DNA of 64,000 nucleotides, from positions 1,022 through 65,021 of the forward strand of contig CALVJW010000003.1 in the NCBI GenBank assembly GCA_944332435.1, given 5' to 3'. Source of the DNA: an uncultured Bacilli bacterium (GTDB taxonomy: Bacteria; Bacillota_I; Bacilli_A; RF39; UBA660). Both the position numbers and the translations under genes were made by a program. Below, one piece after another: positions 11,515-33,546 of the stretch (position 1 is its first letter; each line of letters opens with the position of its first letter). A model generated the notes under the pieces. The model did no database searches, had not been told where the DNA came from, and saw nothing but the letters and a program-made list of their open reading frames with translations.

Positions 11515-11593
11515 ACATTTACTATACACTGAAAAACGAAAGTTCTTTTGAACTTAGAAAATATCTGATATAATTTAGGAAGAGTGGTGATAT

Positions 11594-12241: not shown

Positions 12242-12242
12242 C

Positions 12243-13300: not shown

Positions 13301-13712
13301 AAAAAGTAAGAAAAGTAGAGGGTTTGGTAAATTTTTAGCCGGAGCAGCAATTGGAGCTGGATTAGGGTTATTATTCGCACCTAAAAAAGGTAGTGAAACA
13401 AGAGCTGATGTAAAGAAAGCAATCGACGATATGATTTCAAAAATTAAAGATATTGATGTTGAAGAAGTAAAAGAAGAATTTGAAGTAAAATTATACCAAA
13501 TTAGAGAAGAATTAGAAGATTTGGATAAAGAAAAAGTATTAAAAATAGCAAAAAAGAAAGCAAAACAAATTCGTGATGCTGTAGATGAATTAGTAGAATA
13601 CACAATTGAAAAAGGTACACCTGTATTAGAAAAAACGGCACACAATATACGTGAAAAAGCAATTGCAACAACAAAAGATGTTCTAGCAAAGTTAGAAAGC
13701 GAAGAAAATTAA
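13293..13712 (+). CDS. YtxH domain-containing protein
   Basis: FLAGAAIGAGLGLLFAPKKGSETR is the YtxH signature, followed by a charged helical region. Confidence 0.75.
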   Translation: MSKKSKKSRGFGKFLAGAAIGAGLGLLFAPKKGSETRADVKKAIDDMISKIKDIDVEEVKEEFEVKLYQIREELEDLDKEKVLKIAKKKAKQIRDAVDELVEYTIEKGTPVLEKTAHNIREKAIATTKDVLAKLESEEN

Positions 13713-13764
13713 AACTTTGCTTTTTTTCATTTTTTATGTATAATAAAGTACCAGAGGTGATACT

Positions 13765-14742: not shown

Positions 14743-14804
14743 AGTAGTAAAGGGAGGATTGAACTCTCTTTATTTTGTGTTACAATAAGATTGAGTGTGA
14801 TAGA

Positions 14805-15701
14805 ATGAAACAGTATATAGAATCTTTTTTAAGTTATATTGAGTTTGAAAAAAATTATTCTTTTTATACAGTGAGAAGTTATGAAGAAGATTTGGATGAA
14901 TTTTATCAATTTTTAAAATCAGAACATATTAATCGTATTAAAGAAGTAGAGTATAGTATCATTCGTATTTACTTAAAAAAACTGTATGAAAAAAATTATT
15001 CAAAAAAAACAATTGCAAGACATATTAGTACCTTACGTAGTTTTTTTAAATATTTATTAAAAGAAGAAGTAGTAGATATGAACCCTATGTTATTAATTAG
15101 TAATCCAAAACAAGATAAGAAGTTACCAAATTATTTAAATTATGAAGAAATAGAAACGATTTTAAATATTCCTAATCAAAAGACAAATCTAGGAAAGCGG
15201 GATGCCCTTATTTTAGAATTATTATATTCAAGTGGTATTCGGGTAAGTGAATTAGTTTCTATTAAATTAGATCAAATTCAATTTTCTAATCGTACCATTA
15301 AAATACTTGGAAAAGGAAATAAAGAACGGTATGTTTTATACGGGAATAAGTGTGAACAATTATTAGAACAATATCTACATACAGCAAGATTTGAACTACT
15401 TGGTAAAAAACAAAATCAATACTTATTATTAAATAAAGATGGGAATCCCCTTAGTACCGGTGGTGTTCGTTATATTATTGGAAAAATATTAAAAGAAAGT
15501 GGTTTAAAATTACATGTTTCACCCCATACATTACGTCATACTTTTGCAACGCATCTATTAAATAATGGAGCAGATTTAAAAAGTGTTCAAGAACTTTTAG
15601 GACATGAAAATCTAAGTACAACGCAAATTTATACTCATGTATCGAATGAGCGACTTCGTAATGTCTATTTACATACGCATCCACGAGCAAGAGAAAAGTG
15701 A
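14805..15701 (+). CDS. site-specific tyrosine recombinase, XerC/XerD family
   Basis: SAM-like N-domain (SFLSYIEFEKNYS..T..SYE.DL) and a catalytic domain with RDALILELLYSSGIRVSEL, HTLRHTFATHLL and LGHENLSTTQIYTHV. The start was moved to the ATG at 14805. Confidence 0.85.
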   Translation: MKQYIESFLSYIEFEKNYSFYTVRSYEEDLDEFYQFLKSEHINRIKEVEYSIIRIYLKKLYEKNYSKKTIARHISTLRSFFKYLLKEEVVDMNPMLLISNPKQDKKLPNYLNYEEIETILNIPNQKTNLGKRDALILELLYSSGIRVSELVSIKLDQIQFSNRTIKILGKGNKERYVLYGNKCEQLLEQYLHTARFELLGKKQNQYLLLNKDGNPLSTGGVRYIIGKILKESGLKLHVSPHTLRHTFATHLLNNGADLKSVQELLGHENLSTTQIYTHVSNERLRNVYLHTHPRAREK

Positions 15702-15811
15702 TAACTTTTCTTTTTTTGTTAAATTTTTGTTAAATTTTGCTACTTTTTTCGCATATAAAATAAAATAGTGTTATAATGAAATTGTACATACTAAAGGAGG
15801 CAAAAAAAGTT

Positions 15812-18439: not shown

Positions 18440-18470
18440 AACGCATAAGCGTGAAAAATATTAAGAATCA

Positions 18471-18496
18471 AAAAGAACAGAAATGTTCTTTTTTTG
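18471..18496 (+). terminator. ppdK terminator
   Basis: Hairpin gaaca-gaaa-tgttc followed by T7. Confidence 0.65.
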
Positions 18497-18660
18497 TTGG
18501 AATAAAAGGAATTAGTTAATGTTTTTTTAAATGTATTTGTTAAAAATAGTGTAATTAGTTTTATAAAAGAAAATAAAATTACGATTAGAAAATAGTCACA
18601 GTATAGTTAGGGTGACTATTTTTGGTTGGAAGAAATAAACATAAGAAAGGAGCGATTTAT

Positions 18661-19128
18661 ATGTATTATAGAAAACCAACATTAAAAAATCTTTCACAAG
18701 GAGCTCGACTTGAGTATGTTAGGAGATTAAGGCACATGAATGAAGATGATGTTGTTGAATATTTTGGATTTGGAGGAAGGTATCCTCGTAAAACATTCAG
18801 AAGCTATGAAGCTAACTATAGAGAACCAAGTAAAGAAAGACTAAAAGATATAGCAGAGTTATATGAAGTAAGTATTGATGCAATAAAAAAATATGACTTT
18901 AACGATCCGATAGATGTTATTTATTTTCATATGTGGTTGGAAGAAGAGTTTCCATATTACGAGATAAACTTCGATTGTGATAGTTATGAGAAAACAGATT
19001 ATAATGATATTGTTCAAAATGCTATTAGAGAATGGAAACAAATGAAAAAAAAAAGAGAAAATCTAGAAATATCCGATGATGAATATCTTGAATGGAAATT
19101 AAATTTTAAATTAGAAAAAGAATTTTAG
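18661..19128 (+). CDS. XRE-family helix-turn-helix regulator
   Basis: GARLEYVRRLRHMNEDDVVEYFG...FRSYEANYREPSKERLKDIAELYEVSIDAI follows the Cro/C1 HTH pattern (..yE.g.r.Ps...l..iA..l.vs.d.l). The ATG at 18661 sits behind RBS aaaggag. Confidence 0.55.
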   Translation: MYYRKPTLKNLSQGARLEYVRRLRHMNEDDVVEYFGFGGRYPRKTFRSYEANYREPSKERLKDIAELYEVSIDAIKKYDFNDPIDVIYFHMWLEEEFPYYEINFDCDSYEKTDYNDIVQNAIREWKQMKKKRENLEISDDEYLEWKLNFKLEKEF

Positions 19129-19202
19129 ATGAAGAATGAAAATATATGATATACTTAATATGAATATATATGCTTTGATTTTAAAAATATATGGAGGTAA
19201 AA

Positions 19203-20231
19203 ATGGAATATTTAATTAATAATGAAATAAATAGTGCAATATGTGATGTTGCAAGATTAATAAGTAATGATGAACAACAAATTAATCAATTGGTTGAAAT
19301 ATTGAAAAAAATGGTGACTGTTCAATTTACACAAAATGCGATTGAAGGGACATCTCATGCAGCAGGTACAGATCCTATAATTGATTTTAAGGAAGAAAAT
19401 GAAACATTTACAGTTGTATGTAATAAGATTATAGTTACTTTGCCATACTTATTAAGTGCAAATAATATCCACCATTTTAGAATTGATGCTAGACATGAAT
19501 TTTTTCATGCATTTGCTTATCTTCTAAATAATAAAATAATAAGATTAAATGTAGATAAAATGTACTTTAATTTAGGTGGAAAAATAAATGAACGAAGTAT
19601 GTATAATCCACGATGTGATAATAATGATTCATATGCTTCTATATTATTTAATGAAATCGTAACAGATCTTTCAGCTTATTGTTCATATTATCCCAAATTA
19701 AATATTAGTATGAACCAAATACTTAATGGTAATGGATTAGAAACTATAAATAATACATATGGTATGGGAAATGGATATTGTCAATTATTTCCTTTAGGAA
19801 TGTGTGTTATAAAAGCATTTTCAAATTATAATTGTGATTATGATAGGCTAGGACAAAATAAATTTGAAGCAAAGTATCAATCTGATAGTGATAAAGTTTA
19901 TTATAATGATCTATTATACGGAATCTTATACAATCCACTTAGCATTAAAGATTCATTTATAAAGTATACATCAGAAGAAGATTGGCAAACTTTAGAAAAC
20001 ATAGCAAAAAAGATTGTAACTGATTTTAAAGAAAAAGATAGAAAAGTAGATTATGATAATATTCAAGAATTTTTAACAGTTTTAGCAAAATATCTAAATA
20101 ATAAATATCAAAAGACAAATGATCTTATTCTAAAACAACAACTAACTATAATAATAGCTGAATTTAATGAATATTATAAAAAGGCATTAAATTATTATGG
20201 TAATTTAGGCTATAATAGAAATACTAGGTAA
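19203..20231 (+). CDS. hypothetical protein with an HExxH motif (putative zinc metallopeptidase in an ImmA/IrrE-like position)
   Basis: The HEFFH motif (RHEFFHAFAY) is the only recognisable feature. The placement between an XRE-HTH gene and a recombinase mirrors immR-immA-int modules. Confidence 0.4.
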   Translation: MEYLINNEINSAICDVARLISNDEQQINQLVEILKKMVTVQFTQNAIEGTSHAAGTDPIIDFKEENETFTVVCNKIIVTLPYLLSANNIHHFRIDARHEFFHAFAYLLNNKIIRLNVDKMYFNLGGKINERSMYNPRCDNNDSYASILFNEIVTDLSAYCSYYPKLNISMNQILNGNGLETINNTYGMGNGYCQLFPLGMCVIKAFSNYNCDYDRLGQNKFEAKYQSDSDKVYYNDLLYGILYNPLSIKDSFIKYTSEEDWQTLENIAKKIVTDFKEKDRKVDYDNIQEFLTVLAKYLNNKYQKTNDLILKQQLTIIIAEFNEYYKKALNYYGNLGYNRNTR

Positions 20232-20333
20232 ATATATTCTCAAAGAAGTAGGAATACTTCTTTTTCTTATGCCTAAAATCGCATCCTAATAATTATTTAT
20301 AAAAGATGATAAAGTTTTTATAGAGGTGATTTA

Positions 20334-21950
20334 ATGAAAAGAAAGGTAGCAATATATGCAAGAGTTTCAACAGAACATGAAGCTCAATTATCTGCTTTAG
20401 ATAATCAAGTCCAATATTATGATAGTATTTTGAAACAACATCCTGATTGGATTCTATATGATAGATATATCGACGAGGGTATAACTGGCACTTCTACTAA
20501 GAAGAGAAAAAATTTTATGAAAATGCTAGAAGATGCTAAAGAAGGTAAATTTGATTTAATAGTTACTCGTGAAGTATCAAGATTTGCAAGAAACACAGTT
20601 GATACTTTACAAGAAACTAGGAGGCTAAAGAAGATAGGAGTTGAAGTTTATTTTACTGAAGATAATATATGGACATTTAATGATGAAGATGGAGAGTTAA
20701 AACTTACAATAATGGCAACACTTGCTCAAAATGAAAGTAAAAAAACTTCTCAAAGAGTAAAAGCTGGCCAAATGATTTCATTTCAAAATGGAGTGTTCTA
20801 TGGAACAGGTAATATACTTGGATATGATAAAGTAGGTAAAGATTTAGTAGTTAATGAAGAACAAGCTGAAATAGTAAAATTTATTTATTCAGAGTATTTA
20901 AATGGTAAGGGAACAGTTTCTATAGCAGATGAATTAACAAGGAAAGAAGTAAAAACATCAACCGGGCTAACTAACTGGAGTCCGTCTTACATATCAAGAG
21001 TATTAAGAAACCCATTTTATTCAGGTACAATAGTTTATAGGAAATCATATATACCAGATTATCTAGAACAAAAGCCTGAAATGAATTATGGAGAAGTAGA
21101 ACAAGTAATTGTAGAAGGTAAACATGAGCCGCTTGTATCAAAAGAAGACTTTAAAAAAGTTCAAGAAATAATGGATGGTCATTCAAAACAAATTAAACTT
21201 GGTATTAGACGAGCTAAAGGAACTGCTAAAAATATTTGGAGTAAAAAGTTAATATGTGAATGTGGGTCTAATTTCAATAGAAGAGTATATCATAGGAATA
21301 AAACTAACACTACATTTTCTTACGATTGCTATAATAGAAAAATGCATCCTGATAGTAAATATAAAAATACTGATTATAAATTGTGTGAAGTAAAAGAAGT
21401 TCAAGAGTGGAAATTACAATTTATGGCTGAAGCAATTTTTACAAAGCTTACACAAGATACGGATAATAGAAAAGAATTAGTTAATAAATTAATGAATGGA
21501 GTGAAAATAGATGATCATCCAGAGAAAAAAATAAAACAAAGAATTGATAAATTAAATCAATTAATAAAAAAGGAAACAGCAAAATTAGATAAACTAATAG
21601 ATACATATTTAGATGAAACAATAAATATAACAATGTATGATATATTCCAAAAGAAGTTATCAAGTAGAATAGAAAAATATAAAATAGAAATTAGCGAATT
21701 AGAAAAAGAATATAAATCAATAGAACCATTAGAGGTAAGAATTGAAAAGGTAAAAAATAGTATTCGTAAATTATTAGATATTAGTTATAATGGTGTTGAT
21801 GAAAAAATAATAGAAGAATTTGTAGATAAAATAATAGTTCATAAAGATTATTTTGAATGGAAGTTAAATTTTATGAATGAAACAATAAAGTTAGAAATAA
21901 GTGGTAAAAGTAAATCAGATTGCTTTGTTGTGGAATATAAGGAAAAATAA
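20334..21950 (+). CDS. large serine recombinase (resolvase/invertase N-domain, recombinase domain, zinc ribbon, coiled coil)
   Basis: VAIYARVSTEHE (catalytic Ser region), DLIVTREVSRFARN, TLAQNESKKTSQRVKAG, a Cys cluster CECGS...CYNRK, and a long K/E-rich coiled-coil C-terminus. Confidence 0.9.
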   Translation: MKRKVAIYARVSTEHEAQLSALDNQVQYYDSILKQHPDWILYDRYIDEGITGTSTKKRKNFMKMLEDAKEGKFDLIVTREVSRFARNTVDTLQETRRLKKIGVEVYFTEDNIWTFNDEDGELKLTIMATLAQNESKKTSQRVKAGQMISFQNGVFYGTGNILGYDKVGKDLVVNEEQAEIVKFIYSEYLNGKGTVSIADELTRKEVKTSTGLTNWSPSYISRVLRNPFYSGTIVYRKSYIPDYLEQKPEMNYGEVEQVIVEGKHEPLVSKEDFKKVQEIMDGHSKQIKLGIRRAKGTAKNIWSKKLICECGSNFNRRVYHRNKTNTTFSYDCYNRKMHPDSKYKNTDYKLCEVKEVQEWKLQFMAEAIFTKLTQDTDNRKELVNKLMNGVKIDDHPEKKIKQRIDKLNQLIKKETAKLDKLIDTYLDETINITMYDIFQKKLSSRIEKYKIEISELEKEYKSIEPLEVRIEKVKNSIRKLLDISYNGVDEKIIEEFVDKIIVHKDYFEWKLNFMNETIKLEISGKSKSDCFVVEYKEK

Positions 21951-21985
21951 TATTCAGTGGTATAATATAAGAAGGAGATGGTCTC

Positions 21986-23410
21986 ATGGATCAAACATAT
22001 TGTGGTGATTTAATATTTAATAACATAAAATACAAATTCGATTTTAGAAACAATGTTTTAGTTATTATTCCTGATGAATTAGAAGATTATACAAAATGGC
22101 ATTTTAAAAATATAGGTAGTAAAGATAAATTTGAACGAGTAAATGTTGAAGGTACTACTAACAATGGTTTTTATATTTGTTTTATTCATGTTAAATTTTC
22201 ACATATGGGAAGGGGAATATTACAAGCGTTTGTACCTGGATATGTTATTTGCAAAGCCGTTGGAGTAAGTCCTCTTCCTAAATGTGAAGAAATTAGTAAA
22301 ATAAGATTTTTCGGTGAATGTTTAGATAGATTCTATTATCCAAAAAGAATAATTAAAACCAGTGATTTTTTTCAGTCAAATGATATAACTTTAGAGGTGA
22401 ATAAAAATAAACTTAAAACAGATAATTTTATTATTAATAAAGATGTATTTAAATTTGGAGTAGCATGGAAAATTCCTTTTAGTTCTAATATTAATGTTGT
22501 TCTTGATGTTGAATCATTTTTAGAAATTGAATTTAATACTAAACAAAACATAGATGAAATTGTTGAGTATTATTTAAAGGTAAAAAAATTCTTTTCTTTT
22601 ATAAATAATAGAAAATATATAAAATTCAATAAAGTTATAGCATATACTACTATTCCGGTAAACTACGGAATAAAACGAGATGATATTAGAAACGAAGAAT
22701 TTAAATTTGAATTCTATTTTGTAGATCCTGATGAGAAATATGATTTAGATAAAGCTAATAATTCAATTCATTTAGAAGATTTAGACAATAAATTTTCGAA
22801 AATATATAAGTTAGTTACTAATAAGGATTTTTTGACAGAATATTATCCATTAAGTATATCAGATAATAATTATGTGGATAATGATAAATATGTTAATGTT
22901 GCTAGAGCATTTGAATCTGAATTTGATAAATTGTATCCAAAATTCAAAGCAAAGACGAGTGAAGAATATAATGCTGTAAAAAAAGCGTTATTGAAATGTT
23001 TATCAAATAAGAAGAATAATGCTAATTTAGCAATAAAAAAAGAGAAAGATATAAAATATAATAAAAAGATTATAAAAGAATGTAACTATTTTAATAAAAT
23101 TATTAGCAAAATGGAAGGGAGTTTGTCAGAAAAAGTAACATACTCTTTAAGAAAATATAAAGAGATTATTTCTAATAAAAAGAAGTTAATGCTAAATAAT
23201 TATCAAATTACCAAAATAAAAGATGGAGTTTTAGCTGACAAATTTAAAGAAAGAAGAAATGCTATTTCACATGGAAGTTCTGCTAATGCTTTTACTGATA
23301 TAGAAGTAATAGCATATGAACTAGTAAGAATGTGTATATATTGTATAACATTAGAAAGATGTAAAATGTCAGAGGAAAAAATAGATAATATAGTTAGTAA
23401 AATATTTTAA
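21986..23410 (+). CDS. HEPN-motif protein, ApeA-like architecture (beta-rich N-domain plus C-terminal HEPN)
   Basis: 474 aa. The C-terminal helical region carries KERRNAISHG, which is R-N-x3-H and so fits the HEPN Rx4-6H RNase motif with the typical polar residue after Arg. Size and layout resemble single-gene ApeA defence proteins. The assignment was made without a profile search. Confidence 0.5.
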   Translation: MDQTYCGDLIFNNIKYKFDFRNNVLVIIPDELEDYTKWHFKNIGSKDKFERVNVEGTTNNGFYICFIHVKFSHMGRGILQAFVPGYVICKAVGVSPLPKCEEISKIRFFGECLDRFYYPKRIIKTSDFFQSNDITLEVNKNKLKTDNFIINKDVFKFGVAWKIPFSSNINVVLDVESFLEIEFNTKQNIDEIVEYYLKVKKFFSFINNRKYIKFNKVIAYTTIPVNYGIKRDDIRNEEFKFEFYFVDPDEKYDLDKANNSIHLEDLDNKFSKIYKLVTNKDFLTEYYPLSISDNNYVDNDKYVNVARAFESEFDKLYPKFKAKTSEEYNAVKKALLKCLSNKKNNANLAIKKEKDIKYNKKIIKECNYFNKIISKMEGSLSEKVTYSLRKYKEIISNKKKLMLNNYQITKIKDGVLADKFKERRNAISHGSSANAFTDIEVIAYELVRMCIYCITLERCKMSEEKIDNIVSKIF

Positions 23411-23557
23411 AAAAAATAAGTTATTTTAGTCAAAATAGAACGGTATATCGTTCTTTATAGTATTCCTAAGTATTTTGTGGCACAAGCTGCAGTCAAATCT
23501 GCTGGAAAAAATTAATAGAACATAAAAATACTTGCTGTTAAATTAATTCTTATAAAG

Positions 23558-23585
23558 GACGATAAAACAAAATCGTCTTTTTTTA
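23558..23585 (+). terminator. rho-independent terminator downstream of the HEPN-motif gene
   Basis: Hairpin ggacgat-aaaacaaa-atcgtc followed by T8. A weaker hairpin (agaacg/cgttct) lies at 23437-23454. Confidence 0.6.
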
Positions 23586-23589
23586 TTGA

Positions 23590-23920
23590 AGAAGACGATA
23601 ATAGATTAAATTTAGAATTAATATGTGATGAATATGATAGTCCAATATATTACTAGAGTTATTACAGAGTATGAATCAAAAAAGAAAGCAATCGTTTTGG
23701 TAAATAAGTATAAAGACTACAATTAGTGAGAAAAATTAAATTTTCAAAGTTTAGAACGAACTACGCAAGAGCAGAAAATATTCAAGAATTTTTAGAGAAT
23801 AATTTAGATTCAAAATAGTTATTATCAAAAGAAGAAATTGAGTGGGTAACAACTTATCTTTGAGAAATGAAAAAGTATTTTTACACGTTACTACATCTAT
23901 TGTAATAAATATTGGATATT
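23590..23920 (+). pseudogene. decayed gene fragment; its C-terminal part is homologous to the fragment at 27267-27366
   Basis: The reading frame is broken by several stops (..KFSKFRTNYARAENIQEFLENNLDSK*LLSKEEIEWVTTYL*EMKKYF..). It shares the 20-nt string atgaaaaagtatttttaca and an EEIEW peptide with 27267-27366. Confidence 0.35.
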
Positions 23921-24167
23921 TGCATAAAGATTCTTTTTAGAAGAAAGAACAGAGCAAGTTAGTGATAATAAAAAACAAAATGTATAAAATATAAATATAT
24001 AATAAAGACAATCTTGAGGAGTGATAGATTATCACTTTTTTATTATGATTTAGAACGATGAATAGTAAGGCATTTTTCACAAGAAGTAATGAGATGGTTA
24101 ATACGAACATTTCATTGACAATGTACCTTTTTATGTTATAATAACAAAACAAAAGGAGGAAATTTTT
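23921..24167 (+). repeat. terminator-promoter cassette, copy 1 (paralogous to 25934-26211)
   Basis: Roughly 80% similar by eye to copy 2: agattcttttt-agaaga..., aaaacaaaatgtat.aaatataaata, and hairpin gaggagtgat...atcac(t)ctttt, followed by a TTGACA-16-TATAAT promoter. Confidence 0.7.
24115..24142 (+). promoter_or_regulatory. sigma-A type promoter of repeat-protein gene 1
   Basis: TTGACA (24115-24120), 16-nt spacer with TGt extended -10, then TATAAT (24137-24142). RBS aaaggagga follows. Confidence 0.6.
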
Positions 24168-25907
24168 ATGTTCGAAGAAGACCTAGAAATACTAAAAATT
24201 TTAAACTGTAATAATGCATCGATGATTTTTAATTACGCTACAGGAAATAGAAGAATGAGTAAAGAAGTATTAGAGAAACTTGAGGATGCGATTATAGCAA
24301 CAGAATATGCAATGTACATTTGTTTTTTTGCAAAAAATATAGAAGGGGCAAATATAGCAAAGCTAGAAGACGCCATTATAGAGATTGGAGATGCCAAATA
24401 TATTTATCATTTTGCAAGGGATATAGAAGAAGCAAATATAGCAAAACTCGAAGATGCCATTATAAAAACTGGAAGTATAGACTATATTTTTGATTTTGTA
24501 AAAAATGTAACAGGAGTAAATATTGAAAAATTCGAAGATGCTATTATAAAAACTGGAAAATTAAGTACTATCAGTCGTTTTGCAACAGAGGTAGAAGGAG
24601 TAAATATTGAAAAATTAGAAAAAGCAATTATAGCAATAGGAAGAGCAGACTTTATTTTTTTGTTTGCAAAAGATGTAGACGGAGCCTATATAGCAAAACT
24701 AGAAGACGCCATTATAGTAACAGGAAATGCTGAATATATTTATAGGTTTGCACGTGAGATAAAAGGAGCAAATTTTGAAAAATTAGAAAATGCCATTATA
24801 GTAACAGGAAATGCCGAATATATTTATAAGTTTGCTAGAGATGTAAAAAGAGCAAATGTTGGAAAATTAGAAGAGACTATTATAGCAACAGGAAATGCTG
24901 AATATATTTATAAGTTTGCTAGAGATGTAAAAAGAGCAAATGTTGGAAAATTAGAAGAGACTATTATAGCAACAGGAGACGCCGAATACATTTGTGAGTT
25001 TGCAAAAAATGTAACAGGAGCAGATATGCCAAAATTAGGAGAAGCAATCATAGCAACAGGAGACGCCAAATACATTTGTGAGTTTGCAAAAAATGTAACA
25101 GGAGCAGATATGCCAAAATTAGGAGAAGCAATCATAGCAACAGGGAAAGCCGAATATATTTATAAGTTTGCAATGGAAACAAAAAGAGCAAATATAGCAA
25201 AATTAGAAGAAGCAATGATAGCGACAGGAAATGCCAAATATATTTATCTCTTTGCAAGAATCGGTGTAGTATATGAAAGTGAAATAATCAGTTTACCAAA
25301 ATTAGAAGAAGCTATTATAAATACAGGAGATGCAAAATATATTTATAAGTTTGCAAAAGAAGTAAAAGGGGCAAATATATCAAGATTAGAAGATGTAATT
25401 ATAGCAACAGGAGACGCTGAATATATTTATTGTTTTGCAAGAGACGTAGAAAGAGTAGTTATCGCAAAACTAGGATCTGTTATTATATCAATAGGGGACG
25501 CCGAATATATTTATAAGTTTGCCAAAGATGTAAAAAGAGCAAATATTGAGAAATTAGAAGAAGCTATCATGGCAACGAGAAATGTAAAATATATTTGTAG
25601 GTTTGCCAAAGATGTAAAAGGAACAAATATTGCAAAATTAGAAGATGCAATTATAGCAACAGGGAATGCCAATGATATTTATTGTTTTGCACTCGTTGTA
25701 GGAGACGCCAATATAATAAAACTAGAAGATGCAATTATAGCAACAGAGGATGCTGAATATATTAACTCTTTTGCAAGAGATGTAATCGGAGCAAATATAG
25801 AAAAATTAGAAGAAGCGATTCAAAAAGTCGAAGAAAATACAAAAATAATAAAGAAAATTCAGAGAAAATTTCAAATTTATCAGAAGAAAAAACGTGAAAA
25901 TGATTAA
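24168..25907 (+). CDS. tandem-repeat protein, about 18 copies of a 28-aa predicted helix-turn-helix-hairpin repeat (family not recognised)
   Basis: 579 aa. The consensus unit is LEDAIIATGNAEYIYKFARDVKGANIAK repeated head to tail. There is no signal peptide or TM segment. The gene has a strong RBS and promoter. Confidence 0.85.
   Translation: MFEEDLEILKILNCNNASMIFNYATGNRRMSKEVLEKLEDAIIATEYAMYICFFAKNIEGANIAKLEDAIIEIGDAKYIYHFARDIEEANIAKLEDAIIKTGSIDYIFDFVKNVTGVNIEKFEDAIIKTGKLSTISRFATEVEGVNIEKLEKAIIAIGRADFIFLFAKDVDGAYIAKLEDAIIVTGNAEYIYRFAREIKGANFEKLENAIIVTGNAEYIYKFARDVKRANVGKLEETIIATGNAEYIYKFARDVKRANVGKLEETIIATGDAEYICEFAKNVTGADMPKLGEAIIATGDAKYICEFAKNVTGADMPKLGEAIIATGKAEYIYKFAMETKRANIAKLEEAMIATGNAKYIYLFARIGVVYESEIISLPKLEEAIINTGDAKYIYKFAKEVKGANISRLEDVIIATGDAEYIYCFARDVERVVIAKLGSVIISIGDAEYIYKFAKDVKRANIEKLEEAIMATRNVKYICRFAKDVKGTNIAKLEDAIIATGNANDIYCFALVVGDANIIKLEDAIIATEDAEYINSFARDVIGANIEKLEEAIQKVEENTKIIKKIQRKFQIYQKKKREND
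24816..25145 (+). repeat. two pairs of (near-)perfect 84-bp tandem duplications inside the repeat-protein gene
   Basis: 24816-24893 equals 24900-24977 (offset 84 nt, identical). 24978-25061 versus 25062-25145 differ at one base (E->K). Confidence 0.9.
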
Positions 25908-25933
25908 ATAACTTAGTGAATTCGCATACTATT

Positions 25934-26211
25934 TACATAGAGATTCTTTTTTAGAAGAAGAATCATCTCAAGCTAGTAATGATAAAAACAAAATGTATCA
26001 AATATAAATAATATGACTATATATAGTAAAACATTGTGAGGAGTGATTGCTCATCACTCTTTTATTATGTTTTAGAACGATAGATATTTTGTAGTTGACA
26101 ACAATATTGGTAGTGAGTTTTACCAAAAGAAACAACACAATGATTGAAATTATCTTTCGTTGACAAAATAACTTTTTATGCTATAATAACATGCAAAAGG
26201 AAGGGAATTAT
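25934..26211 (+). repeat. terminator-promoter cassette, copy 2
   Basis: Paralogous to 23921-24167. It has the hairpin gagtgat-tgctc-atcactc at 26041-26059 and the promoter TTGACA (26160-26165)-16 nt-TATAAT (26182-26187). Confidence 0.7.
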
Positions 26212-27234
26212 ATGGCTAGTGAAGAAACAAGAATACAAGAAATTTTTAATTATATACGAGAAAAAAAATATAATAGTAAAGAAGAATTAAGTAAATTAGA
26301 AGATGAGATTATAATGACTGGAGATGCTCAATACATCTATGAGCTTATGAGAGATGTTATAAGATTAAACCTTGATGGAATAAATATATCAAAGTTAGAA
26401 GATGCCATTATAAAAGCTGGGGATGTAGGATATATGTACCGTTTTGCTGGCTATGCTGTTGATTCCAAATTTAAAGGGGTAAATATTTGGAAAATAGAAG
26501 ATGCCATTATAAAAACTGGAAATGTTGAATATATTTATTATTTTGCTGGTATTACAGGCGCTAATATCGCAAAACTCGAAGATGCACTTATAGAAATAGG
26601 AAATGTTGAATATATTTATTATTTTGCAAAAAGCGTAAAAGGATCAAATATTGAAAAATTAGAAAATGCCATTATAGCTACAAAAAATATAGAATATATT
26701 TGTAAGTTTGCAAGATACGTAAAAGGATCAAATATTGAAAAAATAGAAGATGGTATTATAAAAACTGAGGATGCAAGATGCATTTATGAATTCGTAATTT
26801 CTACTATAGGGCTTCATATTAAAGGAATAAATATGCTAAAGTTAGAGGACGCCATTATAGCAACAGGGAATGCTGAATATATTTATAAGTTTGCTCGTAA
26901 CATTGCTGGAGCAAATATTGCAAAATTAGAAGACACTATTATAGCAACCGGAAATGCTCAATATATTTATTATTTTTTTAGAGTTGCTGGAGCAAATATT
27001 ACAAAGCTGGAAGAAGCATTATTAAAAACTGGAAACGCAAAATATATGTATTTTTTAGTAGGATATATTGAGGATTCAAAATTTGAAGGCATAAATATTG
27101 CGAAATTAGAAGATGCCATTATAGCAACCGGAGACGCCGAATATATTTATTGGTTTGCATGTAACGTTGATGGAGCAAATATTGCAAAATTAATAAATGA
27201 CGAAAGAGATTCAAAAGTATTGAAAAAATTATGA
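26212..27234 (+). CDS. tandem-repeat protein paralog, about 10 copies of the same 27-33-aa repeat
   Basis: Same unit as the upstream gene (LEDAIIATGNAEYIYKFARNIAGANIAK). Some units carry a 5-aa insertion (..DSKFKGVNI..). The ATG at 26212 sits behind RBS aaggaaggg. Confidence 0.85.
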   Translation: MASEETRIQEIFNYIREKKYNSKEELSKLEDEIIMTGDAQYIYELMRDVIRLNLDGINISKLEDAIIKAGDVGYMYRFAGYAVDSKFKGVNIWKIEDAIIKTGNVEYIYYFAGITGANIAKLEDALIEIGNVEYIYYFAKSVKGSNIEKLENAIIATKNIEYICKFARYVKGSNIEKIEDGIIKTEDARCIYEFVISTIGLHIKGINMLKLEDAIIATGNAEYIYKFARNIAGANIAKLEDTIIATGNAQYIYYFFRVAGANITKLEEALLKTGNAKYMYFLVGYIEDSKFEGINIAKLEDAIIATGDAEYIYWFACNVDGANIAKLINDERDSKVLKKL

Positions 27235-27266
27235 TAAAAATTTAAATAAAAAAACTTATTATATTA

Positions 27267-27366
27267 AAAAGAAATCGAATGGTTAGCTAATTTGTCTTTG
27301 GCGGATGAAAAAGTATTTTTACATGCTGCTGTATCTATTGCAAAAATAAGAGAATTAAAATGATAA
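27267..27366 (+). pseudogene. orphan C-terminal gene fragment, homologous to 23828-23912
   Basis: Translates as KEIEWLANLSLADEKVFLHAAVSIAKIRELK* with no upstream ORF. It matches the decayed fragment upstream of repeat gene 1. Confidence 0.35.
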
Positions 27367-27461
27367 AGTTACTTTTAATCTTGCTAGTTTAGATGTCATC
27401 TTTATTGAAAAAATTTATCAAATATGACTGTAGTATCAACAACACCATAGTGTAAAATAAT

Positions 27462-27492
27462 AAAAAAGTAACATGAATTTGTTACTTTTTTT
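27462..27492. terminator. bidirectional terminator at the right edge of the island
   Basis: aaaaaagtaac-atgaattt-gttactttttt, with A and T runs on both sides. Confidence 0.6.
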
Positions 27493-27540
27493 CATATTGA
27501 TAATAGAAATATGTTACAATAAAGTTGGAAGGTGAAAAAA

Positions 27541-28440
27541 ATGAATATACTATGTATTGGACATGCAGCATATGATACAACAGTACCTGTATTAAATTTC
27601 CCAGAGGAAAATACCAAAAATCGAGTACCTGAAAGACTTGGTAATGGGGGAGGACCTGCTAACAATGCGGCATATTTACTTGGCAAATGGGGAATGAATA
27701 CTTATTTTGCAGGAATTGTTGGCGATGATCAGGACGGAAGAAAAATAGAGGAAGAGTTAAAACAGGTTGGAGTAAATACAAAGTATTTAGAGTTTAATAA
27801 AGAACATACGACGACTTCCAGCTTTATTATAGCAAATCAGAAAAATGGTTCTAGAACGATTATGACATATCGACCTAGTCATATGGCAATGACAGATGTT
27901 TCGGTCACGGAAGATATCGATGTAATATTAGTTGATGGACAAGAATATGAATTTTCGAAAAAGATGTTAGAGCAATATCCTAATGCAATATCAATTATTG
28001 ATGCAGGAAGACCAGTAGAAGAGGTAATTGACTTGTGCCACAAAGTAAATTATGTTGTTTGTTCTAAAGAATTTGCAGAAACAGTAGCAAATACCAAAAT
28101 AGAAATGGATCATTTTGAAACTTTGACTCAAACTTTAGAAACTTTAGAACAGTTATTTCATACAACCATTGTAATTACATTAGAGGCAAATGGTTGTTTA
28201 TATCGTGAATCTGGGGTTGTAAAAATAATGCCTTCATTGGAAGTAACACCAGTTGACTCAACCGGTGCGGGTGATATTTTTCATGGAGCATTTACATATG
28301 CGATTAGTAATCATTATTCTTTCGAAGATAGTTTGCGAATTGCTTGTATAGCTGGAGCAATATCGGTAACAAGACTTGGTAGTAGAAGATCGATGCCAGA
28401 AAAAGAAGAAATGAAGAAGTATTTTTATGAGTTTAAATAA
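27541..28440 (+). CDS. PfkB-family carbohydrate kinase (ribokinase-like)
   Basis: N-terminus ILCIGHAAYD, GGGPANNAAYLLGKWG, and C-terminal DSTGAGDIFHGAF (the PfkB signature). Confidence 0.85.
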   Translation: MNILCIGHAAYDTTVPVLNFPEENTKNRVPERLGNGGGPANNAAYLLGKWGMNTYFAGIVGDDQDGRKIEEELKQVGVNTKYLEFNKEHTTTSSFIIANQKNGSRTIMTYRPSHMAMTDVSVTEDIDVILVDGQEYEFSKKMLEQYPNAISIIDAGRPVEEVIDLCHKVNYVVCSKEFAETVANTKIEMDHFETLTQTLETLEQLFHTTIVITLEANGCLYRESGVVKIMPSLEVTPVDSTGAGDIFHGAFTYAISNHYSFEDSLRIACIAGAISVTRLGSRRSMPEKEEMKKYFYEFK

Positions 28441-28699
28441 TATAATATTTGTAGATCATTATCCCAAGTTAGACTTACATGGAGAAACGACTGAAACTGC
28501 ACGTGTATTAATTCAAGATTTTATTCGCGATAATATAAAATTAAAACAAAAGATTATCGTGATTGTTCACGGAGTTGGAAGTGGAGCAATTAGACAAGCT
28601 ACACGGGATACTTTAAGAAAGAATAAAAATGTTTTAGATTACAAGACTTTTTATTATAATAATGGGTGCACAGTAGTAGAATTGAAAATTGACTTTTAA
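28427..28699 (+). CDS. Smr domain-containing protein
   Basis: LDLHGETTETAR...IVHGVGSGAIRQATRDTLRKNKNV matches the Smr/MutS2 C-terminal domain. 90 aa. Confidence 0.8.
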   Translation: MSLNNIIFVDHYPKLDLHGETTETARVLIQDFIRDNIKLKQKIIVIVHGVGSGAIRQATRDTLRKNKNVLDYKTFYYNNGCTVVELKIDF

Positions 28700-28772
28700 G
28701 TGATTTTATGATACAATTTAATAACAACAAAGAAGTGCATAAGGTAAGGAAAATAAAGTAATTCGTTATAAT

Positions 28773-28801
28773 TTGACAAGATGTGATGTTTGTGCTAAGA
28801 T
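28773..28801 (+). promoter_or_regulatory. sigma-A type promoter of the 28835-31970 operon
   Basis: TTGACA (28773-28778), 17-nt spacer with TGc, then TAAGAT (28796-28801). Confidence 0.5.
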
Positions 28802-28834
28802 ATGCAACATCAAATTGGAAAGAGGGGGAATTTT

Positions 28835-30211
28835 ATGTATAATGAACGTAGAGAAAATTTTTCAATCAAAGATATCGTATTACAAATCTTATTTGTAATT
28901 GTGTTTATCTTTATTTTGATGTGGTTATTTCCATCAAAAAGCTTTGTAAAGGAATCATTGCAACCTTTGTATGATCGAATTTTTAACGAGAATATTCTTA
29001 TGATGAAGGATGCAGCAAAAAGTTATTATACTGATCCAAGATTACCACAAAAAGTTGGAGATAAAGTATCAATGACTTTAGGTGAAATGTTAGATAAGAA
29101 AATTATCTTACCATTTACAGATAGTAAAGGTAGAGCTTGTGATAATGTTGGTTCTTACGTAGAAATTACGAAAATGGACGAAGAGTATATCATGAAAGTT
29201 AATTTAAAATGTACAGAACAAGAAAATTACTTATTAGTATACATGGGATGCTATACTTACTGTACAACAACAATTTGTGAGAAAAATGAAAAGGATGTTG
29301 CAACTCCAACTATTTTCCCAACAAATCCAGGAAGACCAGGAAATACACCAAAACCTGATAAGACTCCAACTCCAACTTCAAAACCAACGCCAACGCCAAC
29401 ACCAACTTCAAAACCAACGCCAACACCGACTCCAACGCCACCAGGTAAAGAATATATTTGTCAATATATTAAGACAGTAGATGCTTCTTATACGCAATGG
29501 GGTAATTGGTCAAGTTGGTCAACAACAGAAAGATTTGAAAATGATTTAACACAGGTAGAATCTAAAACAGAAATTACATATACAACTGAGACAAAACAAA
29601 TTGGTGAAAGAATTAAAACGAGAACAATTACATATAAAGATAAGAATAAACCAATTTATGGATGGAAAGAAGTAAAAGTTCAAATTGGTTCTGAAAATAA
29701 AAAAGTATGTACAGCAACAACGAAAAAAGAAGTAGGAACAGGAGAATACGCTTACACAGAATGGAAAGATACTGGAGTACAAAAACAATTTACGAGTGAA
29801 CCACCAGTAAGTGCTACAGAAAGATGGTACTTTGTACGTACGATTAATCAAGATTGTAATTGTGCATTTGGAAAAGTAAGAATTTACGCACAACAAACAA
29901 GAAAAAAATATGAAATTACGAAAACACAAGAAGTTTGTACGAAATGGGAAGTAAAAAGTGTTCCAATTTATACAACTCAAAAAGTAAAAGTTATTGTAGA
30001 TTATGGAACATCACAACGTGTGGAAACATATAAAGAACCAATTTATGGTGAAGTAAAAGTTCCACATAGTACAACATATTATCGTTATCGTACACGTGAT
30101 ATTATTGACGGATATCGTGATGAAGTATGGATTGATTGTGATGACAAAGATGCAGCTAATAAATTGAAGAAAAAAGGCTATAAATTTACAGGAGTTAGAA
30201 AAGAAAAATAG
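28835..30211 (+). CDS. membrane-anchored hypothetical protein with a Pro/Thr-rich linker
   Basis: N-terminal TM segment (IVLQILFVIVFIFILMWLF), a Cys-containing globular region, the linker TPKPDKTPTPTSKPTPTPTPTSKPTPTPTPTPP, then a K/T/E-rich beta-like domain starting with WGNWSSWS. RBS agaggggg lies before the ATG at 28835. Confidence 0.6.
   Translation: MYNERRENFSIKDIVLQILFVIVFIFILMWLFPSKSFVKESLQPLYDRIFNENILMMKDAAKSYYTDPRLPQKVGDKVSMTLGEMLDKKIILPFTDSKGRACDNVGSYVEITKMDEEYIMKVNLKCTEQENYLLVYMGCYTYCTTTICEKNEKDVATPTIFPTNPGRPGNTPKPDKTPTPTSKPTPTPTPTSKPTPTPTPTPPGKEYICQYIKTVDASYTQWGNWSSWSTTERFENDLTQVESKTEITYTTETKQIGERIKTRTITYKDKNKPIYGWKEVKVQIGSENKKVCTATTKKEVGTGEYAYTEWKDTGVQKQFTSEPPVSATERWYFVRTINQDCNCAFGKVRIYAQQTRKKYEITKTQEVCTKWEVKSVPIYTTQKVKVIVDYGTSQRVETYKEPIYGEVKVPHSTTYYRYRTRDIIDGYRDEVWIDCDDKDAANKLKKKGYKFTGVRKEK
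29364..29441 (+). repeat. in-frame 30-nt tandem repeat encoding the PT linker
   Basis: ccaacttcaaaaccaacgccaac occurs at 29372 and 29402. Confidence 0.8.
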
Positions 30212-30227
30212 AAAGGAGTAATGTGGT

Positions 30228-31970
30228 ATGAAAAATTTAGATTACTATTTATCAAAAATAGATTCTTATATTGCAAAAGCTAAATCAACTGATAATTCTT
30301 CGAAAAGAGAAGCTTTGCTTCAATTTGCACAAGAATTGGTTGATAAATTAGGAGCACAAGCAACAAAAAATCAAATTTCTGAAGTAGAAAAACGTCAACA
30401 CCAATTAAATTCAATGTATAAGAAAGTGAAACGTTTTGCTAAAATTAGAAATTTAATTAAAAGAAACAAATTAGCTAGTGCTCTTGCTGGAACTATTGTA
30501 TTATCGACAATTGGTGGATGTGCGATATCTTTACAAAACAACAGCGCAGTTGTAGAAAATGTAAATGATATTGAAAAAGAAGCAGAGTATGATACAGAGC
30601 GATATAGTCGAAATCCATTGACTGGACAGTCATTAATTGCTGGTGGTACTGCTTTTGCTAAATCATTAGCAGAAAACGGAGCTTATGATAAAGAAGGATA
30701 TGGCCCTGAAGTATACGCATTACTTGCTGTATTGAATACGAATGGTTCAATGCCTGGTAAAGCTGATTTTGTTAAAAATATTGATTTACAAGATTATTTC
30801 GCTGAAAAAGGTGATTTAAACAAAGGGATTAATCAAATTGATGAATTAATTGAAAAAGTTGTTCGCGCAAGAGGAGACTTAGATTGGGAAAGTATTGTTC
30901 CTCATATAAAAAGTGCAAAAATGTTAGAAAAAGCAGAAAAACTTTATAACAATGCGGGAGCAAAACCATCTTCAAAACAAAAGGAAGAATGGAACAATTT
31001 CATCAATAATGAAGTAATTGCTGATTTAGAGCAATATAGCCCATTTACCATTATGGCTTTACAACATTATATTACAATGGCAACAGATGCCCATTTGATG
31101 ACGCCAGAACAACGTGACCTATTCTATAAAGATTTAGATGTTATGTGCAATTCAAATGGTCAAGCTTGCGGTATTCCGGATGAAAAAGCTGTAGGTGCAG
31201 AAGATACGATTTATTCATCTTCAAAACAAATTGCAGTTAGTTATTTAGAGTCATTATTAAGCGATGAAAAAGCACATGAACATGCAGAAGGAGAAATTTA
31301 TTATACTTTTGATGAAGTAACAAAAGGTGTAAAAGAAAATATCAAAAATTTAAAAAATGCTGATATTGATATCGAAGAAAAAGGTAAAGAAGAAGCAATC
31401 AAAAATATTGATGCTGTTACACGTGCAAAATATCCTGGTATTACAATAGATGAAAATGATCCAAAAATTAATCATAATAATGGAACATATCAAAGTGGAG
31501 AATCATTACCAGCTGGAAATCATGTTGGTGATACTGTGAATTTACCAAATACTGATGCGAATGGAAATGAAACAGATCAATCAAAAGATGATATGATTGA
31601 TTACTCAAATCAAGCAGCAGCAGACTTTAATAATGGACAATATAAAAATGAATACTTATACAATACTCAACCATCTTATAAAGCAACATGGGATGCTATG
31701 AAAAAAGCATATGATGAGTATAGTAAACCTGCTCCAGGTGATGATAATATTGTTGATGTTGAAGAGGATGAAGATGAAATTTATTATCCAGAAAAATCGA
31801 ATGTACCTGAAGTAAAACTTACTCCAGAAAATACTGTAGTTAGTGATGACATAACATCAGAAGAAGTCCTATACGATGATTGGGTATTAGGTGCTGATGG
31901 ATATTACTACCCAAGAGGACAATTTAATTCAGCATCACTAGATGAAAATACAAATTCTAAAATACGATAA
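30228..31970 (+). CDS. hypothetical bitopic membrane protein
   Basis: 580 aa with one TM segment around residues 83-103 (LASALAGTIVLSTIGGCAI). The start lies 16 nt after the upstream stop and has an RBS. No family was recognised. Confidence 0.6.
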   Translation: MKNLDYYLSKIDSYIAKAKSTDNSSKREALLQFAQELVDKLGAQATKNQISEVEKRQHQLNSMYKKVKRFAKIRNLIKRNKLASALAGTIVLSTIGGCAISLQNNSAVVENVNDIEKEAEYDTERYSRNPLTGQSLIAGGTAFAKSLAENGAYDKEGYGPEVYALLAVLNTNGSMPGKADFVKNIDLQDYFAEKGDLNKGINQIDELIEKVVRARGDLDWESIVPHIKSAKMLEKAEKLYNNAGAKPSSKQKEEWNNFINNEVIADLEQYSPFTIMALQHYITMATDAHLMTPEQRDLFYKDLDVMCNSNGQACGIPDEKAVGAEDTIYSSSKQIAVSYLESLLSDEKAHEHAEGEIYYTFDEVTKGVKENIKNLKNADIDIEEKGKEEAIKNIDAVTRAKYPGITIDENDPKINHNNGTYQSGESLPAGNHVGDTVNLPNTDANGNETDQSKDDMIDYSNQAAADFNNGQYKNEYLYNTQPSYKATWDAMKKAYDEYSKPAPGDDNIVDVEEDEDEIYYPEKSNVPEVKLTPENTVVSDDITSEEVLYDDWVLGADGYYYPRGQFNSASLDENTNSKIR

Positions 31971-31973
31971 ATG

Positions 31974-31997
31974 AAAAAGGCGAAATGCCTTTTTTTG
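31974..31997 (+). terminator. operon terminator
   Basis: aaggc-gaaat-gcctt followed by T7. Confidence 0.65.
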
Positions 31998-32071
31998 TTT
32001 GACAAAAAGGATGATAAATGATATGATTTAAGTACAATAGATGATAGCGGAATAGATAGAAGGTGAATATA

Positions 32072-32491
32072 GTGAAGGGTGCTTACGTATTTGATTATAT
32101 TAATGAAAACGAGTTTAGAAAACTAGAGCGTTCTTTAAAAAAATATAATATGTTGGCATATAAAAAATTATATTTTGAATTCTATCCTAAATTAAAAACA
32201 GGTGAATTTCTAGGAGAATTAGTATCTACAAATCAAGATACGAAAGCAATAAGTTATGAACTAAAATTACCAACTGACTCAATGTTTTCTAAAGTTCATG
32301 GAGATATTAAATTACACTATCATGTTTATGAGGAAAACAAGATTATTATGTTGGATACTATTTCACCAGAAGATATTTTAAGTGAAGGGCATCAATCAGA
32401 GCTAGTTACTTATAAAGGGGTTATGGTTTCTAAAGAGCATTCAGAAAAAGATATTTTTAAAATTAATTTATTAAATATGATTGAAAAATAA
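32072..32491 (+). CDS. hypothetical protein
   Basis: ORF with a probable GTG start behind RBS gaaggtg. No motif was recognised with confidence. Confidence 0.4.
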   Translation: MKGAYVFDYINENEFRKLERSLKKYNMLAYKKLYFEFYPKLKTGEFLGELVSTNQDTKAISYELKLPTDSMFSKVHGDIKLHYHVYEENKIIMLDTISPEDILSEGHQSELVTYKGVMVSKEHSEKDIFKINLLNMIEK

Positions 32492-32571
32492 AGAGAAATC
32501 TTTATTTTTTTAGTTTGAAATAATAGCAGAACAATTTTATTTTCCGTATATTATAATAAAGGAGGGATAAA

Positions 32572-33546
32572 GTGGAAAAAAAAGGAATTGATGTATCAGT
32601 TCATCAAGGGGATATTGATTGGAATGTTGTAAAAGATAATATTGATTTTGCTATTATTCGATGTGGATATGGGATTGATAAAGTAGACCAGGATGATAAA
32701 AAGTACTATGTAAATGCTAAACAGTGTACAAAATTAAAAATTCCGTTTGGTGTTTATTTATATAGCTATGCAAGAAGTAAAGAGGAGGCAAGGAGTGAAG
32801 CAAAGCATGTACTTCGATTGGTAAAGGAATTCAAATTAGAGTATCCGATTTATTATGATGTGGAATCTAATTTATATATTGATCAAAATAGTATGGAGAC
32901 ATTAACTAGTATGTGTGAAACGTTTTGTAATACGATAGAAGAAGCAGGATATTATGTTGGAATTTACTCCAATTTAGCCATGTTTCAAACCAAACTAAGT
33001 TCTCCAAGATTAGATAAATATGACAAATGGGTTGCTCAATGGGGACAAAATATTACTTATCAAAAGCCCTTTGGTATGTGGCAATATACGAGTGATGGTA
33101 AGATAAATGGTATTAAAGGTAGAGTAGATTTAAATATTGCTTATTATGATTATCCTAAATTAATTAGAGAAAATAAATTAAATCATTTAGACTCAAACGT
33201 AGAAATACCAATTATACCAGAAAAACCAAAATATCCGACTTATACTGTAAAAGCAGGAGATAATTTAACAAAAATAGCAAAAACTTATGGTACAACAGTA
33301 AATGTTTTAGTACAACTAAATCAAATTAAAAATCCTAATTTAATTTATCCAGGGCAAGTATTGAAGTTGCCTACGAATTCGAGTCAGGGAAATCAGCCGA
33401 CGATTTATATAGTAAAAAGTGGAGATAACTTATCAAAAATAGCAAATCAATTTAATACAACTTGGCAAGCAATTTATATAAAAAATAAATCTTTAATTGG
33501 AAGTAATCCTAATAAAATATATCCTGGAATGAAATTAGTGATTTAA
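32572..33546 (+). CDS. GH25 muramidase (lysozyme) with two C-terminal LysM domains
   Basis: [30 protein letters not shown] (GH25 N-terminus) plus two LysM repeats ([20 protein letters not shown]...[10 protein letters not shown] and [20 protein letters not shown]...IYPGMKLVI). Confidence 0.9.

Follow-up and report, generated by a model that had tools for sequence, protein, structure and literature searches.

The window analysed here is a 64,000-nucleotide stretch of DNA from an uncultured Bacilli bacterium (contig CALVJW010000003.1, positions 1,022 to 65,021). It contains two neighbouring genes, g1 and g2, whose products are built of a 28-residue tandem repeat. It is well supported that both encode real, constrained cytoplasmic α-solenoids belonging to a large family without a name. 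Open reading frames (ORFs), DNA periodicity and unit counts all agree with a preliminary description of this DNA, which had proposed two paralogues composed of such repeats. The features of the two genes are as follows, with coordinates given in the window.

24168-25907, + strand: g1, an ORF of 579 amino acids (aa), with a 37-aa N-terminal cap, 18 canonical 28-aa units and a degenerate 19th unit
g1 residues ~346-378: the only unit of g1 with a 5-aa insertion
g1 residues 544-578: C-terminus, predicted long helix
26212-27234, + strand: g2 from its probable start, a 340-aa paralogue beginning MASEET..., with 10-11 units
24115-24142, + strand: predicted g1 promoter, TTGACA-16-TATAAT with TG extension (12/12), followed by a AAAGGAGG ribosome-binding site (RBS)
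26160-26187, + strand: predicted g2 promoter, TTGACA-16-TATAAT with TG extension (12/12), followed by a AAAGGAAGGG RBS

The repeat genes and their units

The repeats are evident in the DNA as well as in the proteins, whose units stand out when the sequences are written in rows of 28 residues. Tandem Repeats Finder reports an 84-nt period in g1 at 24327-25247 (11 copies, 79% match, score 769) and a row of 168-nt period across 24285-25820 (score 1141). A hidden Markov model (HMM) of the unit recognises 18 to 19 units in g1 (E = 7e-222) and 10 to 11 in g2 (E = 6e-102), and these are its sole matches in the 64-kb window. Units in g2 are spaced by 27, 28 or 33 residues. The longest ORF of g2 runs from 26191 to 27234 and would encode 347 aa; however, the true start is almost certainly the ATG at 26212, since the first ATG lies a mere 4 nt beyond the -10 box, whose last nucleotide is 26187, and it is 26212 that has the AAAGGAAGGG RBS in front of it. 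A g2 length of 341 aa had been given before, in agreement with this shorter form. Automatic annotation could easily miscall the start (26191 vs 26212), and exact-protein look-ups of g2 and of the nearby PfkB, each with both starts, returned no protein on record.

Across 565 units of the family the consensus is LEDAIIATG(N/D)AEYIYxFA(R/K)(D/N)(V/I)KGANIEK, matching the one first drawn from g1 and g2. The conserved positions are L1, I5, I6, Y13, I14, Y15, F17 and A18, together with E2 and D3, which are conserved acidic surface residues of the unit. Conservation is lowest at positions 16, 27, 19, 20 and 12, followed by 25, 22, 23, 11, 7 and 9; the earlier list of variable positions (the residue after TG, the residue after YIY and the DVKG tetrad) was thus only partly right. 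Between the units of g1, the ratio of nonsynonymous to synonymous substitution rates (dN/dS) is 0.55 overall and 0.29 at scaffold positions. It reaches 1.35 at variable positions, a value that is partly circular as the position classes were chosen post hoc for variability, so that only the scaffold constraint is safe.

Both proteins are acidic, with isoelectric points (pI) of 5.14 for g1 and 5.05 for g2 and D+E exceeding K+R in each. The maximum Kyte-Doolittle hydropathy over 19 residues is 1.47 in g1 and 1.12 in g2, and both N-termini are acidic. By these simple criteria of hydropathy and N-terminal charge, neither protein has a signal peptide or membrane segment, and the cytoplasmic location proposed at the outset holds.

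The two genes carry their own promoters, as had been noted, both of the TG-extended TTGACA-16-TATAAT type, and judging from sequence both are probably well expressed. Private promoters of family genes tend to be better than those of their neighbours (p = 2e-5). The resemblance between g1 and g2 extends into the non-coding DNA, where about 250 nt upstream of each gene are homologous and comprise a 3' flank, a hairpin, the promoter and the RBS. This upstream module is not conserved outside the species, and the non-coding parts of the cassette contain no RNA family known to Rfam. The hairpins are located as follows.

26038-26062, + strand: terminator-like hairpin 3' of g1, GAGGAGTGAT..ATCACTC, followed by a T run
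24016-24041, + strand: homologous hairpin 5' of g1, 89% identical over 45 nt to 26037-26081

The DNA 5' of g1 (23917-24059, with the hairpin at 24016-24041) resembles the 3' flank and hairpin that follow g1, which suggests that it is the 3' flank of a further family gene that has since been deleted. Within g1, units 6 and 7 and units 8 and 9 are 92% identical at the DNA level. Taken with the homologous upstream regions, this indicates that whole-gene and unit duplication have both been active.

Predicted fold and comparison with known families

AlphaFold2 models built with family alignments are of high confidence for both proteins. The mean predicted local distance difference test score (pLDDT) is 90.9 for g1 and 91.9 for g2, and the predicted template modelling score (pTM) is 0.73 and 0.83, respectively. 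According to DSSP both models are all-helical and contain no β elements; each unit consists of two helices of 10 to 11 residues, and the 28-residue period is kept throughout. The turns between helices are formed by TG(D/N) and KGAN. In the g1 model, 19 helix pairs follow one another and a long helix closes the C-terminus. Both proteins are therefore predicted to be continuous α-solenoid tandem-repeat proteins with two helices per unit, in line with the α-hairpin solenoid first suggested from the repeat pattern.

Structural comparison with the PDB by Foldseek returned only generic solenoids for both models: Sel1 proteins, the tetratricopeptide repeats (TPR) of Ctr9 and the consensus TPR (CTPR) proteins, designed helical repeats, toroids, armadillo proteins and importins. 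All of these superpose poorly, with template modelling (TM) scores of 0.1 to 0.3 and root-mean-square deviations (RMSD) of 15 to 30 Å. In the models, the local hairpin appears familiar and the overall geometry appears to be without a match among solved structures. In the viral structure library BFVD one match was specific (26% identity, E = 4.5e-8); it comes from an uncultured Caudovirales phage, and the protein is uncharacterised.

Sequence comparison also failed to place the proteins. Scans of g1 and g2 against Pfam, NCBIfam, PADLOC and PHROGs gave nothing robust, and PADLOC-DB had no match at E ≤ 0.1 for g1, g2 or the two ORFs upstream of them. No PDB sequence matched at E ≤ 10, either with a single protein or with a gap-free profile of three units. 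In the literature on DUF1184, OHA, PcfJ and RF39 repeat proteins we found no account of this repeat. In Pfam, g1 scored 29.6 bits for DUF1184 (PF06683), where the cut-off is 25, over one 53-residue stretch covering profile positions 148-199 of 203; g2 scored 14.7 bits, below the cut-off. Among 102 family members scanned, 11 touch DUF1184 or OHA (PF14418) at E ≤ 0.01 and four touch SH3_6 (PF12913). These matches cover only short parts of the profiles (148-199 of 203 positions, or 13-31 of 77), lie inside the repeats and mostly lack a single significant stretch. We read all three as probable periodic artefacts, in which weak periodic similarity is summed over the repeats; g2 and about 90% of members do not show them.

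A close architectural comparison is with the HEAT-like repeats, including those of the PBS-lyase type. These also have two-helix units of about 27 to 31 residues arranged in a helix-turn-helix-loop solenoid, with a small polar or Gly turn between the helices. However, the HEAT-like signature V-R-x-x-A-A-x-A-L-G differs from the Y-I-Y-x-F-A...K-G-A-N-I-x-K-L-E-D-A-I-I of the g1/g2 family, and none of the 102 members has a Pfam HEAT match at E ≤ 0.01. The architecture is compatible, but the sequences do not belong to the profile. Sel1 and TPR proteins provide the best Foldseek matches (the Sel1 protein 6ok3 of Oxalobacter, CTPR and Ctr9) and share antiparallel helix pairs in a superhelix. Their period of 34 to 44 residues (34 in TPR, 36 to 44 in Sel1) contrasts with 28 here, no Pfam match was found at E ≤ 0.01 in the 102 members, and the TM score is about 0.2, so this assignment was also rejected. 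Ankyrin repeats likewise have a helix pair followed by a G-A-(D/N) motif, and show paralogue expansions in host-associated microbes and viruses. Their unit, however, has 33 residues with a β-hairpin finger and a TPLH motif, neither β elements nor a Pfam Ank match (102 members) were found here, and ankyrin was discarded too. Comparison of the three-unit profile by hhalign gave probabilities of 0.13% for alphaRep, 0.07% for CTPR3 and 0.07% for DARPin, although the consensus sequences used were approximate, and the result serves as a lead only. De novo designed helical repeat proteins (DHRs), designed toroids and designed armadillo proteins resemble the family in their highly idealised, near-identical short helical units and are among the top Foldseek matches. 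They differ in being artificial and in superposing poorly overall (TM ≤ 0.15), and armadillo units have three helices. Thus g1 and g2 cannot be placed in TPR, ANK, HEAT, Sel1, PPR, LRR or any other curated family, as had been suspected: the sequence family is new, and its architecture, the α-solenoid, is familiar.

Relatives and their genomic settings

A search with a single sequence returned 338 matches, all unnamed proteins. A profile search of 1.84 billion representatives found 1,776 clusters at 50% identity with E ≤ 1e-3, of which 1,064 reach E ≤ 1e-10. In 5.8 billion clusters nothing exceeds 55% identity to g1 or g2, so that their own history is not traceable. When one genome per species was scanned, 28 loci were found, with several genomes contributing more than one. 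They come mainly from uncultured low-GC gut Bacilli (recorded as Tenericutes, Mycoplasma sp. CAG:776 or Ca. Pelethosoma), with some from Clostridia; two contigs belong to a metagenome-assembled genome (MAG) labelled Muribaculaceae. Tandem arrays of two to four paralogues occur at six of the 28 loci. A typical member has about six recognisable units and the maximum among 257 retrieved proteins is 13, which makes g1, with 18, an extreme. There are also giant relatives, P0154 (1,676 aa) and P0155 (1,115 aa), and one protein contains dozens of 28-aa units. A DNA pattern search for AEYIYKFA yielded one match, which was false.

Many apparent extra domains of the relatives are degenerate copies of the 28-aa repeat. 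Sixty-nine members share a helical C-terminal domain that g1 and g2 lack. Genuine fusions are rare. Two relatives (P0059 and P0155) are fused to PcfJ-like domains, and two others (P0225 and P0165) carry an N-terminal repeat array on an AAA_5/McrB-MoxR-like ATPase, one of them with a duplicated ATPase module; the source contigs of both kinds of fusion are too short to show gene context. In one multidomain relative, a PcfJ-like domain is accompanied by repeat arrays at the centre and the C-terminus of the protein. A third kind of fusion is found in three paralogous proteins of a viral contig (L050 and L054, IMGVR_UViG_3300026488_000030), which have an N-terminal DUF7666 domain (E = 1.3e-20) and five to eight units of a Cys/Trp-rich variant of the repeat.

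Diverged branches from a Stutzerimonas plasmid, from IMG/VR viral contigs and from a further contig, L052, share the core FA..VKGA(D/N)I..L...VI. The plasmid relative (L029; Stutzerimonas frequens plasmid NZ_CP142123, 68099-69043) is 33% identical and annotated as hypothetical, and its neighbours are toprim, thermonuclease and integrase genes and a huge gene with an LPD23 domain. L052 is a genuine phage contig with terminase, portal, head protease, methyltransferase and exonuclease genes. A single-sequence scan of viral contigs found no relatives, and there is none in the INPHARED phage genomes.

In most species, the family genes are stable chromosomal genes. None of the Pfam families among the 89 immediate neighbours at these 28 loci is found there more than three times, and the commonest are housekeeping families (PheRS alpha and beta, oligopeptidase F, DnaJ, PFL, acetate kinase and pyruvate kinase); neither a defence theme nor secretion-system genes recur among them. 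P0001, the closest relative of g2, has thioredoxin on one side and WhiA on the other in three independent samples; the most abundant relative, P0084, with 340 member sequences, comes after rpsL-rpsG-fusA-tuf, also in three samples. Nearly all members read in the 90%-identity clusters are equal in length, apart from a few short fragments. Substitutions within orthologue clusters affect 29 of 819 residues in the repeats and 45 of 887 outside them, and are not concentrated at particular unit positions. Repeat-number polymorphism, which the preliminary description had proposed to look for, was thus absent from the sampled orthologue clusters.

The inserted segment and the proposed role of the repeat proteins

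In a sister species (L037, PfkB 84% identical), PPDK is followed by about 100 nt and then PfkB. This contig aligns to 10689-18415 and 27451-31790 of the window, and the gap in the alignment marks 18416-27450 as an insertion of about 9 kb that contains a helix-turn-helix (HTH) gene, a 346-aa ORF, a large serine recombinase, an ApeA-like protein, g1 and g2. The inserted segment is composite, and its parts and borders are listed below.

20261-23564, + strand: recombinase/ApeA-like module, mobile and separate from g1-g2
20334-21950, + strand: large serine recombinase, within the module
21986-23410, + strand: candidate ApeA-like HEPN protein, 474 aa, within the module
23800-23910, + strand: left direct repeat, ~105 nt, imperfect, with a perfect 19-nt core ATGAAAAAGTATTTTTACA at 23867-23885
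27238-27350, + strand: right direct repeat, with the perfect 19-nt core ATGAAAAAGTATTTTTACA at 27305-27323
27463-27492, + strand: predicted intrinsic-terminator hairpin, AAAAAGTAACA..TGTTACTTTTT

The hairpin at 27463-27492 lies directly 3' of PPDK in the sister species and therefore marks the right edge of the inserted segment. A contig of the same species (L036), 99.1% identical over 27214-33310, aligns to 23455-23911, continues at 27305 and lacks g1 and g2. The join lies exactly at the 19-nt core, where L036 has a hybrid of the left arm of one repeat and the right arm of the other. From this alignment the g1-g2 cassette (~23886-27304, 3.4 kb) is present in one strain and absent in another, which fits its loss or gain through recombination of the two repeats at its flanks. 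L036 is a short contig from a metagenome, and the join could be chimeric, although a 19-nt repeat is shorter than the usual assembler k-mers, which speaks against this.

The module upstream has a history of its own. Its 474-aa protein matches ApeA_NTD1 at E = 1.8e-5 (24.8 bits, just under the cut-off of 25.5) and has an RRNAISH (Rx4H) motif near its C-terminus; PADLOC and PDB sequences gave no match to it, and it is plausibly an ApeA-like HEPN protein. Contig L044 is 98% identical to 21808-23564 and then diverges into tRNA-Met/tRNA-Leu and unrelated genes. On L047 the recombinase/ApeA part is 97% identical, with a PPDK/HTH backbone of only 72% identity, and on L045 PPDK has an ApeA-like gene next to it. 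A repeat gene is missing from all four module loci, L044-L047 (best unit-HMM E = 0.085 in L045-L047), so that the module is horizontally mobile independently of g1 and g2. With the module found there without a repeat gene, and with L036 retaining the flank 23455-23885 but not the cassette, g1 and g2 were rejected as cargo of the serine-recombinase element.

We hold with moderate confidence that g1 and g2 are tandem duplicates within an unnamed family of soluble cytoplasmic α-solenoids that most likely act as stand-alone ligand-binding scaffolds or adaptors, and that are expanding by duplication. In this mechanism, each unit would consist of helix 1 (I-x-K-L-E-D-A-I-I-x-T), a G-(N/D) turn, helix 2 (A-E-Y-I-Y-x-F-A-R-D) and a V-K-G-A-N loop. 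The units would stack through an invariant L/I/I/Y/I/F/A core to form a continuous rod or superhelix, leaving exposed positions of helix 2 and the loop (12, 16, 19, 20, 22-23, 25 and 27) to vary between units. The scaffold or adaptor role, with a protein or peptide as the probable ligand, is proposed because the core is fixed and exposed positions vary, because g1 and g2 stand alone, and because relatives occasionally use the array as an N-terminal module of ATPases and mobile-element proteins. The family would grow by unit duplication within genes and by duplication of whole genes with their private promoters. In this strain, the pair would form an accessory cassette lying beside, and not part of, the recombinase/ApeA-like module, with nothing to link the two functionally. 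Several points weigh against this reading. Protein binding would be the default reading for any α-solenoid, the neighbours hint at no pathway, and the lack of a relative above 55% identity hides the history of g1 and g2; the partial circularity of the dN/dS at variable positions and the possible chimeric join of L036 must be added to these.

The preliminary description had placed the genes in a mobile island beside a HEPN protein and considered them sensors or decoys, immunity proteins or nucleic-acid binders. The island is borne out in so far as there is an insertion relative to the sister species and a plausible ApeA-like HEPN gene, but a functional or mobile link from these to g1 and g2 is not. 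It is unlikely that the repeat proteins act in conflict between hosts and phages or mobile elements, be it as a sensor, a decoy, an immunity or antitoxin partner of the ApeA-like HEPN protein or a stand-alone binder of phage proteins. This idea draws on the position of g1 and g2, on the same strand directly after the ApeA-like gene and inside an insertion that varies between strains and species; on the presence or absence of the cassette among strains; on the diverged members of the phage contig, other viral contigs and the plasmid, there beside an LPD23 polyvalent protein; and on the fusions to AAA_5/McrB-like ATPases, PcfJ and DUF7666. However, PADLOC and the INPHARED genomes give no match, the module occurs at four other loci without a repeat gene, and the neighbours of relatives are mostly housekeeping genes and lack a recurring family. 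The homologues are found largely in core, non-mobile contexts, an outcome that the preliminary description had itself named as a refutation, with the closest and the most abundant relatives in fixed positions, and the orthologue clusters are constant in length with few, evenly spread substitutions. An adjoining HEPN/recombinase module is not enough to make g1 and g2 components of defence, and this correction of guilt by association is one outcome of the analysis. Alternatively, the 28-residue repeat may be a general, evolvable recognition module employed on both sides of phage-host and plasmid-host conflict, with the g1-g2 cassette an accessory element of immune specificity, which we regard as distinctly unlikely. 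If it were true, host factors would be the targets of the copies on phages and plasmids, of which some are fused to DUF7666 or PcfJ, and the chromosomal copies of gut Bacilli would be stand-alone sensors or decoys.

Expansions of ankyrin, Sel1 and TPR proteins in host-associated bacteria offer a different model, in which g1 and g2 would be host-interaction proteins or secreted effectors. Several paralogues per genome in gut-associated Bacilli MAGs labelled Tenericutes or Mollicutes, and Sel1 proteins of a gut bacterium among the best Foldseek matches, would suit such a role. It is nevertheless very unlikely, given that the proteins lack a signal peptide or membrane segment and that secretion-system genes do not recur among the neighbours. 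The organisms that carry the family live in the gut lumen and are not known to be intracellular, which counts against it as well. Highly improbable, too, is a modular nucleic-acid binder of the TALE, PPR or PUF type, reading bases through a few variable residues per unit. The many very regular units (18) with variation at few exposed positions speak for it, but the acidic pI of about 5.1 and the conserved acidic surface residues E2 and D3 disfavour it, there is no similarity to nucleic-acid-binding repeats in Pfam or the PDB, and the Foldseek matches are protein-binding solenoids. We give almost no credence to the notion that the ORFs are non-functional, selfishly expanding repeats or an assembly artefact. 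The lack of any relative above 55% identity in very large databases and the recent unit duplications could be read in this way; against them stand two ORFs that are intact over 1.7 and 1.0 kb and have perfect promoters and RBSs, a scaffold dN/dS of 0.29, high-confidence models, and a family of at least 1,776 clusters in which orthologues are conserved at core positions.

The result neither upsets expectations nor opens a long-standing question. It does identify a gap in annotation, in that a family of at least 1,776 clusters with a confident, regular fold has no counterpart in Pfam, NCBIfam, PHROG or the PDB. This gap lies in the uncultured gut Bacilli, about whose biology almost nothing is known. 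As a natural solenoid of 28-residue units that equals designed repeat proteins in idealisation, the family lends itself to curation and structural work, and the polymorphism of the cassette illustrates how repeat genes are gained and lost between strains.

A few further features of the surrounding DNA can be mentioned. The site downstream of PPDK is used by the recombinase/ApeA-like module in at least three genomes. The 346-aa ORF of the insertion (19191-20231) has no Pfam, PADLOC or PHROG match, and as L047 has a 751-aa ORF in its position, this slot is a variable cargo position of the element. A 21-nt sequence at 23774-23794, in the 757-nt gap before g1, is 95% identical to 20055-20075 inside the 346-aa ORF (...NIQEFL...) and may be the remnant of a degraded gene copy. 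Downstream of the insertion, the ORFs 28802-30211 and 30228-31970 are large and without a Pfam match, and one of them has a Pro/Thr-rich linker (TPKPDKTPTPTSKPTPTPTP...). ORFs of similar size, likewise without Pfam matches, occupy the same position in L036 and in the sister species, and the two in the window may encode envelope or surface proteins.

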